Of a stretch of 33,445 nucleotides of DNA, positions 25,456 through 26,382 are shown one piece after another. Origin of the DNA: a virus (taxonomy: Duplodnaviria; Heunggongvirae; Uroviricota; Caudoviricetes). Under the pieces are notes generated by a model, which saw nothing but the letters and a program-made list of their open reading frames with translations, did not search any database and was not told the DNA's origin. Made by a program: the position numbers and the translations under genes. Every line of letters starts with the position of its first letter. The first letter of the stretch is position 1. The DNA lies in the IMG/VR virus record IMGVR_UViG_3300045988_112031, positions 1 through 33,445 of that record; one strand, written 5' to 3'.

Positions 25456-26382
25456 TCACCCCCTGAATCCTGCCGGGATCTGGCTGTAGTCCACGTTGTC
25501 GTAACTGGCTTTGAAGTACGGGTCTTCACGTTTTTCTGTGTACGTACTTACGGACGGCGATAAGCGCAGGGAAAGCTCATCCCATTTTTCCCGCAGCTTC
25601 GACGGGCTGAGCACGTTACGGCACCAGAACGGATCGCGGCTGACGCGGCTGTACATCTCGCAGATTTGTTTGTGAGTACGACCATCCTGCACACACATCA
25701 GGCGAATTTCGTTTGCCCAGGCTGTCCAGTTCGGTTCTTTGGGACGAACCACCTCGCCGTCACATTCGGCAGCCTGCTCGTACAGGGCGATGATTTTTTT
25801 CCAGAGCCACTGTGCGCAGGTCAAATCATCCTGCGTCCCCCACTGGCGCTTTTTAGGGCTGAATACAACCGCATCAGGATGGCGAGTTAAAAAATCCTGT
25901 TCAGCCGTCTGCGTGTCCGGTTGCGAAGCGTCCGGACGAGAAGGTTTTTTATCTGACGGATCATGTTTTGATTTTACTGACGGATCCCCGCCAGATTCTG
26001 ACGGGTGAAAACCCGCTTTTTTGCCAGATTTCGACGCATCAAATTTTGACGGGTCAGATTTTGACGGGTCAGAATCTGACAGTTGAGAAAATGCCGCTGC
26101 CTGAAGCTTCGCAACGTTAAGCTGATAAACATTCGACGCATTGCGGTTACCCTGGCGACGCGCCTTACGCGTTAACCAGCCTTCTGCTTCCAGCCGTGCG
26201 ATAGCCGTTCTGACGGTACTCATCCCCGCGCCAATCTGGCGGGCAATGGTTTCAATTGATGGCCAGCACACACCTTCGTCATTACTGAAATCAGCCAGGC
26301 GGGCCATAATTGCCACGCTGGATAACTTCATGCCTGACGCAGCGCAACCATCCCATACATAGCCGGTTAATTTGGTGCTCAC
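25456..26382 (-). CDS. replication initiator / replisome organiser (HTH N-terminus, lambda O-like organisation)
   Basis: 308 aa; N-terminal winged-HTH-like region (..CWPSIETIARQIGAGMSTVRTAIARLEAEGWL..); central low-complexity DPSK-repeat linker encoded by iteron-like DNA repeats; C-terminal domain. Confidence 0.6.
   Translation of the reverse strand: MSTKLTGYVWDGCAASGMKLSSVAIMARLADFSNDEGVCWPSIETIARQIGAGMSTVRTAIARLEAEGWLTRKARRQGNRNASNVYQLNVAKLQAAAFSQLSDSDPSKSDPSKFDASKSGKKAGFHPSESGGDPSVKSKHDPSDKKPSRPDASQPDTQTAEQDFLTRHPDAVVFSPKKRQWGTQDDLTCAQWLWKKIIALYEQAAECDGEVVRPKEPNWTAWANEIRLMCVQDGRTHKQICEMYSRVSRDPFWCRNVLSPSKLREKWDELSLRLSPSVSTYTEKREDPYFKASYDNVDYSQIPAGFRG
25950..26085. repeat. iteron-like direct repeats inside the replication initiator gene (candidate ori)
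   Basis: At least six copies of a TGACGG(G/A)TCA core (two perfect TTTTGACGGGTCAGA copies in tandem) spaced 15-24 bp; equivalent to lambda ori lying within gene O. Confidence 0.45.

Follow-up and report, generated by a model that had tools for sequence, protein, structure and literature searches.

Where is the replication origin of a lambdoid prophage whose replication module consists of an O-like initiator alone? The question is raised by the virus record IMGVR_UViG_3300045988_112031 (Caudoviricetes, IMG/VR), of which we analysed positions 1 to 33,445; 'the window' hereafter means this whole stretch of 33,445 nucleotides. Its replication module belongs to the 'O-only' class, and the initiator gene contains an array of short TGACGGRTCA-like repeats at 25954-26086. 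Sequence comparisons with related genes point to a segment at approximately 25918-26086 as the probable replication origin of the prophage, embedded in its own initiator gene. An earlier note, made from the letters of the window alone, had proposed that the repeats are iterons and a probable origin, and the proposal gains support both from constraint on the array at the level of DNA and from the linkage of the array to the N-terminal domain of the initiator.

The array comprises seven TGACGGRTCA-like cores on the plus strand, with internal TGAC..GTCA dyad symmetry. Three cores are exact (starting at 25954, 26047 and 26062), two carry one mismatch (25978 and 25999), one carries two (26032), and the seventh, at 26077, is degenerate with three; the core-to-core distances are 24, 21, 33, 15, 15 and 15 bp. 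On the coding strand the core reads TGAYCCGTCA, with an extended consensus of about TTTNACCCGTCAGAATCTG. Tandem Repeats Finder reported a 15-bp period at 26025-26080. In the order in which the initiator gene is read, the sites are as follows.

26077-26086, plus strand: outermost degenerate unit TGACAGTTGA, in register, 15 bp from the core at 26062
26062-26071, plus strand: 15-bp tandem unit with the exact core TGACGGGTCA (pattern scan and Tandem Repeats Finder)
26047-26056, plus strand: 15-bp tandem unit with the exact core TGACGGGTCA (pattern scan and Tandem Repeats Finder)
26032-26041, plus strand: 15-bp tandem unit with the degenerate core CGACGCATCA, two mismatches (pattern scan)
25999-26008, plus strand: fixed-phase site A, core TGACGGGTGA, coding strand TTTTCACCCGTCAGAATCTGG (pattern scan and family consensus)
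25978-25987, plus strand: fixed-phase site B, core TGACGGATCC, containing GATC, 21 bp from site A (pattern scan and family consensus)
25954-25963, plus strand: fixed-phase site C, exact core TGACGGATCA, containing GATC, 24 bp from site B (pattern scan)

As the pattern had been picked post hoc, 200 dinucleotide-preserving shuffles of the window served as a control for clustering only. Five same-strand cores with at most one mismatch lie inside 130 bp of the window, whereas the largest cluster in the shuffles was two (8 of 200) and usually one; the clustering of the cores is real. The sole other exact TGACGGGTCA in the window, at 18017-18026, lies just upstream of a very AT-rich stretch (approximately 18090-18180) between the lysis and terminase genes, and is probably coincidental, with a chance expectation estimated at about 0.1.

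The gene that houses the array encodes a protein with two folded domains, the boundaries of which were taken from an AlphaFold (AF2) model.

25456-26382, minus strand: O-like replication initiator gene, 308 aa, GTG start, AAGGAGG 7 nt upstream (ORF, Pfam and PHROG)
26083-26382, minus strand: N-terminal winged-helix domain (N-domain), approximately aa 1-100
25903-26082, minus strand: disordered linker, approximately aa 101-160
25558-25902, minus strand: lambda-O-like helical C-terminal domain (C-domain), approximately aa 161-275

A full-length match assigns the protein to PHROG 391 ('replication initiation O-like', E=4.9e-135), and its C-domain is homologous to those of lambda O (BLASTP E=4e-26, 30% identity over 210 aa) and phi80 gp15 (E=3e-25, 35% identity). 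The N-domain matches Pfam HTH_36 at aa 23-70 (E=4e-11); BLASTP found no similarity between it and the N-domain of lambda O, and the protein has no Pfam match to Phage_rep_O (PF04492) at E up to 0.01, a family that both lambda O and phi80 gp15 match. The AlphaFold model, built on a 45-sequence alignment, places a winged helix at aa 1-100 (pLDDT 65-88) and a confident helical domain at aa 180-275 (pLDDT 83-92), with aa 103-158 lacking structure (pLDDT <50) and predicted to be disordered. The array occupies gene nt 297-429 and falls in this modelled-disordered segment, between the HTH_36 winged helix and the lambda-O-like C-domain.

Much of the earlier note's description of the locus was borne out by these results. 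The gene is a replication initiator by its full-length PHROG match and its homology to lambda O and phi80 gp15, and the repeats do lie between its two domains. Every core falls within the coding sequence in a single shared frame, read as D-P/A-S, and the array encodes the low-complexity peptide ...SDSDPSKSDPSKFDASKSGKKAGFHPSESGGDPSVKSKHDPSDKK..., a linker of SDPSK type, as had been written. The note's count of at least six cores was exceeded, with seven seen, but only three of them are exact, and its spacing of 15-24 bp does not cover the one gap of 33 bp.

Other searches with the initiator were less informative. DnaD-like or replisome-organizer initiators of the SPP1 G38P type, which also have their origin within the gene, are marked by an N-terminal domain of DnaD type; here a DnaD_N match (E=0.0012, 19.4 bits) fell under the 27-bit cut-off, and PHROG 2514 ('DnaD-like helicase loader', 3e-29) covers part of the protein only. 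An RP-C_N match in Pfam was likewise sub-threshold (E=0.0045), and NCBIfam gave no informative family. A fold search with the model returned only generic winged-helix regulators (best E=4e-3), and a sequence search of the PDB gave weak MarR matches only; the PDB holds no lambda O structure with which the N-domain could be compared at the level of fold.

Whether the array is a repeat of the peptide or an element of the DNA was the main question put to the comparison. We collected relatives by their N-domain, from annotated phages and from one genome per species, the latter set comprising 80 loci of 60-100% N-domain identity in Shigella, Citrobacter, Kluyvera, Yersinia, Providencia, Proteus, Pantoea, Erwinia and other Enterobacterales; 79 non-redundant genes were analysed. 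In every intact gene the array encodes S-D-x-S-K units followed by F-[HD]-P-[SP]-E-S-G-G-D-P-S-V-x-S-x-x-D-P-S, and the reading frame never differs. The three fixed sites read TTTTNACCCGNCAGAATCTGG, GGGGATCCGTCAGTAAA and GATCCATCAG in order on the coding strand, and the coding-strand sequence of site A is the most conserved block of the family. Sites A and B are separated by the same offset in 64 of 67 genes, and B and C by 24 bp in 65 of 65; upstream of these sites stand abutting 15-bp units, from 0 to 6 per gene.

Synonymous codon use at columns with a conserved amino acid, expressed as codon entropy over the 79 genes, separates the array sharply from the adjoining domain.

N-domain: 70 columns, mean codon entropy 1.51 bits, commonest codon 52%
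Residues 98-152: 29 columns, mean codon entropy 0.40 bits, commonest codon 90%

The difference is significant (Mann-Whitney p=8.5e-12). Within the array the codons are fixed by position, so that serine is encoded by TCA or TCT depending on the position, and valine GTA, phenylalanine TTT and glutamate GAA each occur at their own position in 100% of genes. Conservation at the third codon position is approximately 0.5 for aa 1-95 and climbs to 0.7-0.84 for aa 96-155; together with the codon entropy, it delimits the following segment.

25918-26086, no strand assigned: segment under nucleotide-level constraint, candidate origin

A pairwise test against seven divergent phage relatives (near-identical SfII excluded), which compared codon identity at identical residues with a one-sided p, gave the same contrast. 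Codon identity was 0.79-0.91 in the linker vs 0.33-0.51 in the N-domain for phiNP, Kp_ST101, Flotzy, YeP1 and phiP27 (p 5e-4 to 1e-8) and 0.71 vs 0.39 for EKP1 (p 5e-3); for KH16 the values were 0.67 vs 0.53, which was not significant. The amino acids, by comparison, diverge more in the linker than in the N-domain, and the variable nucleotides are those of the core centres and spacers, an arrangement which suggests that the fixed half-sites are read by a protein. The recognition helix (S-T-V-R-T-A) and wing (R-R-x-G-N-R-N-x-S-N-x-Y) of the N-domain are largely conserved in the family, with most positions invariant, consistent with a constant core.

Such repeats could nevertheless be a feature of the protein only: a Ser/Asp/Pro/Lys linker grown by in-frame slippage, with the DNA repeat as a functionless by-product. 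The single frame of the cores fits this explanation, as do spacings that are all multiples of three, a unit number that varies in 15-bp steps among near-identical genes, and the predicted disorder of the region. A linker, however, has no need of serine spelled TCA here and TCT there, or of an unvarying GTA for valine. Synonymous codons are near-invariant position by position across genes from many genera and free in the adjoining N-domain; the residue at the core centre varies (P/A/T/G/V/R/Q) while the nucleotides flanking it are fixed; and the equivalent array of phage mEp460, described below, has a period of 23 bp, which is no multiple of three and so cannot make a peptide repeat. We consider an origin of the repeats in the protein sequence alone to be highly improbable. 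Judged by these codon patterns, the repeats are under purifying selection as DNA and not only as peptide, and the constraint is of a form that peptide selection, codon bias or a recent sweep would not be expected to produce.

The constraint might instead act on an overlapping gene in a second frame, or on RNA, either as an antisense transcript or as structure in the mRNA. In the mRNA sense, 25918-26085 is predicted to fold more stably than shuffled versions of itself (z=-4.0), a signal that follows from the dyad-symmetric repeats; on the plus strand, antisense to the initiator gene, 26002-26015 contains a terminator-like hairpin, CGGGTGAAAACCCG, with a run of T after it; and short ORFs overlap the array in other frames. 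Against these stand the results from the family: the RNAalifold consensus of 30 diverse copies of the conserved block had an energy of -2.66 kcal/mol and lacked compensatory pairs, the best hairpin would pair two variable positions that show no covariation, relatives differ in unit number, and Rfam contains no match for the array at E up to 1. The stem of the terminator-like hairpin appears unconserved on inspection of the relatives' sequences, and a promoter and terminator scan gave a single match of each type within the array, which is the frequency expected by chance. A conserved overlapping reading frame was excluded, as no alternative frame is open across the array in most of the 79 genes. 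Taken together, these observations leave selection on RNA or on a second gene with very little probability.

The gene comparisons indicate that the array is inherited with the N-terminal domain rather than with the rest of the gene. Citrobacter phage phiNP, Escherichia coli phages Flotzy and LLS, and Yersinia phage YeP1 combine an N-domain and array of the window type with a different C-domain (Phg_2220_C). The converse arrangement is found in mEp460, which shares the C-terminal half of the window gene at 96% nucleotide identity up to 25955 (query base 500), the edge of the last core (site C), and has an unrelated N-domain beyond. At the equivalent place (positions 2995-3167 of the mEp460 locus L003), mEp460 carries a 23-bp repeat with dyad symmetry, CATCAGGTCAYTTTGACCYGATG-like, in 5-6 copies, and three AT-rich 12-mers, TATTCTCTGTAG-like, come next towards the C-terminal side; this layout of iterons and AT-rich DNA is clearer than that of the window. 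In lambda and phi80, as in mEp460, only the C-domain is common to the window gene, and a different repeat array takes the place of the window array. HTH_36 initiators that are more distantly related (Stx phage 24B, Salmonella SI5, Klebsiella RothD and Vibrio Va_PF430-3) also have a dyad-symmetric array of their own directly after the N-domain; as a positive control, the same repeat search returned lambda's four annotated iterons. Array-type repeats were present at the equivalent place in every O-like family examined. The comparison with related initiators that the earlier note had suggested as a check has given near-fixed array codons (0.40 vs 1.51 bits) and co-inheritance of the array with the N-domain, both in line with its proposal.

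The module boundaries themselves suggest another source of low synonymous divergence, namely recent horizontal spread or gene conversion of the linker at a recombination hotspot. The homology of mEp460 ends at 25955 and that of phiNP starts at approximately 25919, both at the edge of the array, and the short segment in between, 25919-25955 (encoding PSRPDASQP), is common to the two phages. This segment is moderately conserved across the family, and may be a recombination joint at which N-domain-plus-origin modules are swapped between C-domain types. Recent homogenization, however, would not explain why lineages as far apart as Escherichia, Proteus and Erwinia each show the pattern independently, why the linker has more amino-acid differences than the N-domain, or why those differences sit at core centres and spacers while the neighbouring nucleotides are fixed, which is unexpected from a recent sweep. 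As an explanation of the constraint, it seems to us very unlikely.

Unit number differs between alleles. The allele of the window (26047-26071) is one 15-bp unit (SDASK) short of the 313-aa form of SfII and SfIV; among near-identical genes in IMG/VR, 67 of 80 encode 313 aa, one unit more than the 308 aa of the window, and alleles of 318 and 323 aa also exist. Length variants of 303-323 aa among near-identical genes imply that the linker tolerates change in unit number.

An origin placed inside the initiator gene, where it doubles as the interdomain linker, has been textbook knowledge since lambda, and the C-terminal domain of lambda O is known to bind the P helicase loader. As in lambda, the initiator gene of the window contains direct repeats with dyad symmetry, directly behind the DNA-binding domain and ahead of the C-domain, and the module follows cro and cII in the genome. 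In lambda the four annotated iterons, at gene nt 349-433, are spaced by 20, 24 and 23 bp, and the three fixed sites of the window by 21 and 24 bp, about two helical turns in both cases. Less stable DNA lies on the C-terminal side of the array in the two phages.

25939-25978, no strand assigned: least stable 40-mer of the initiator gene, 33% GC, overlapping sites B and C on the C-terminal side; weak candidate unwinding region (nearest-neighbour stability, z=2.0 vs window)

The window differs from lambda in its N-domain, which is of Pfam HTH_36 and not Phage_rep_O, in an unrelated iteron sequence, in its extra abutting 15-bp units of variable number, and in lacking both a pronounced 40-bp AT-rich tract and a P gene. 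The likeness to the lambda origin in gene O that the earlier note had drawn stands for the position of the repeats and the homology of the C-domain, and is incomplete in the different N-domain family, the weak AT-rich tract and the absent P gene. The candidate origin of the window very probably represents the lambda plan executed with a different DNA-binding domain and iteron sequence, as far as can be judged from sequence.

Phage phi80 provides a second point of comparison. Its gene 15 has the same architecture and a homologous C-domain, with four annotated gp15 sites at gene nt 365-441; it differs from the window gene in its Phage_rep_O N-domain and its iterons, TTCCCGAAAACGGGAA, and is followed by the P-like gene 14. 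On account of this C-domain homology, databases give some relatives of the window protein the name 'Replication protein 15'. The idea, taken from the database name, that phi80 gp15 might share the N-domain of the window was rejected, as the resemblance is limited to the C-domain. The window does not match the iteron plasmid replicons of the Rep_3/RepA/pi type, whose Rep protein is of the WH1-WH2 type and whose intergenic iterons have DnaA boxes and an AT-rich region beside them: the window initiator has no Rep_3-type Pfam match, its iterons are intragenic and no DnaA box lies within 1 kb.

Extra iterons have been studied in Shiga-toxin phages. The origins of 933W and 'P27' contain six iterons, of which the extra ones lengthen the initiator linker, and synonymous mutations in these extra iterons abolished plasmid establishment (Kozlowska et al., PMC7466680). 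The O proteins and iterons of 933W and 'P27' differ from those of the window in being lambda-type. The 'P27' O protein of that study was considered as a relative of the window protein and rejected, as the primers show lambda-type iterons; the true relative is the HTH_36 protein L17 of AJ298298.

Constraint shows that the array has a function and does not say which one. The array could be a functional DNA element other than an origin, with sites for the initiator or a host factor that serve autoregulation, a transcription roadblock, copy control or incompatibility, and with the origin elsewhere. The absence of a strong AT-rich tract or DnaA box beside the array would fit such an element, and tandem units of 15 bp are more like control repeats than phased origin iterons. 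On the other hand, the position, orientation and spacing of the array match the origins of lambda and phi80, whose initiators have homologous C-domains; arrays stand at the same place in the other O-like families, as noted above; and a pattern scan found no second cluster of TGACGGRTCA-like cores in the window. We regard a non-origin function as unlikely, and retain the replication origin as the probable role of the array. That SfII, SfIV and LLS carry the module and are viable (PMC12315714) means that an origin must exist.

A number of observations weigh against this assignment. Pfam and other scans found no P-like, DnaC-like or helicase gene in the whole 33 kb window. The tract of low stability reaches z=2.0 and overlaps two sites, compared with z=3.4 at the same relative position in lambda, and there is no lambda-like 40-bp AT-rich tract. 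No DnaA box was found within 1 kb of the array, and the 15-bp spacing of the tandem units is unlike the approximately two-turn spacing of known lambdoid iterons. The D, S and K residues that flank the core centres are also conserved, and all cores share one frame, such that some protein-level selection may also act on the linker. Finally, we found no published test of origin activity or initiator binding for any member of the family in the searchable literature.

Our data are consistent with a model in which the winged helix of the initiator, probably as a dimer, would bind the partly dyad-symmetric cores. What we infer extends to the initiator as the binder, the passage from binding to the start of replication, the melting site and the loading of the helicase. 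The three sites at fixed 21- and 24-bp spacing, about two helical turns, would form the core of a nucleoprotein complex, to which the variable number of abutting 15-bp units upstream would add binding sites. The duplex might then open at and just beyond the last two sites, where the DNA is comparatively rich in A+T, and the C-domain, homologous to the P-binding part of lambda O, could recruit the host replicative helicase without a phage-encoded loader. The same DNA would be translated into the disordered Ser/Asp/Pro/Lys-rich linker between the two domains.

Methylation may be a further element of control. Sites C and B each contain a conserved GATC (at 25959 and 25983), and the array holds at least one GATC in 75 of the 80 related loci and exactly two in 54. 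A Dam-family methylase gene (24708-25361) lies 95 bp downstream of the initiator gene, and a Dam-like gene is found within 2.5 kb downstream in 36 of the 80 loci, often abutting the initiator gene. The GATC sites and the nearby Dam gene may link origin firing to methylation. We put forward, tentatively, a wider scheme in which the array and initiator would constitute a self-contained lambdoid replicon: the host helicase would be loaded without a phage loader, through a C-domain re-targeted from P to a host protein; the fixed triad would assemble the initiation complex and the variable 15-bp run would tune occupancy or copy control, as two classes of site; and firing may be coupled to Dam methylation through the GATC sites.

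A close parallel is phage LLS, whose O protein has an N-domain 87% identical to that of the window and the same array, followed by a methyltransferase gene and no helicase loader, as in the window; it differs in its C-domain, which is Phg_2220_C-like as in phiNP. 'O-only' modules, including that of LLS, were reported in 34 of 314 phages in a 2025 survey, which states that O-only replication has never been studied and is not understood, and describes no origin (PMC12315714). Among our 80 related loci, a lambda-P-like sequence was present in only five. The SfIV genome paper mentions the replication module and no origin. In the searchable literature, which did not cover the SfV genome paper, we found no description of iterons of the window type, and a full-text search with the core sequences returned unrelated primers only.

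The module is abundant. The initiator gene was found at 80% query coverage or more in 1577 of 5426 complete E. coli genomes and is also carried by SfII and SfIV, which are serotype-converting phages of Shigella; the N-domain and array are distributed across the Enterobacterales. The interest of the locus lies in this abundance, in the clear nucleotide-level constraint and in the handle that it offers on O-only modules: a mapped candidate origin with defined sites makes the question of O-only replication directly testable by recoding. The contrast in codon entropy may also provide a general route to origins hidden in initiator genes.

The surroundings of the initiator gene are those of a lambdoid prophage, with the gene order running from right to left (ORF list with Pfam and other matches).

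28483-29136, plus strand: cI (ORF and domain matches)

After cI, the minus strand carries cro, a cII-like gene, a Rha-family gene, the initiator, the Dam methylase, RusA, a KilA-N-type regulator, an HNH protein, Q, and the lysis and structural genes. At 24322-26382, as in the window as a whole, the initiator is the only component of the replication module.

Two non-coding RNAs were identified by Rfam upstream of the initiator, both on the minus strand: a C4 antisense RNA at 26991-27078 (77.8 bits) and an isrK Hfq-binding RNA at 27103-27179 (78.7 bits). Both lie within the 5′ part of the long ORF 26379-27233 (Pfam Ash and Rha), and the true start of the Rha-family gene is probably further downstream. 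The arrangement resembles a cassette for antirepressor control, of the P1 immI type, that was inserted between the cII-like gene and the initiator.

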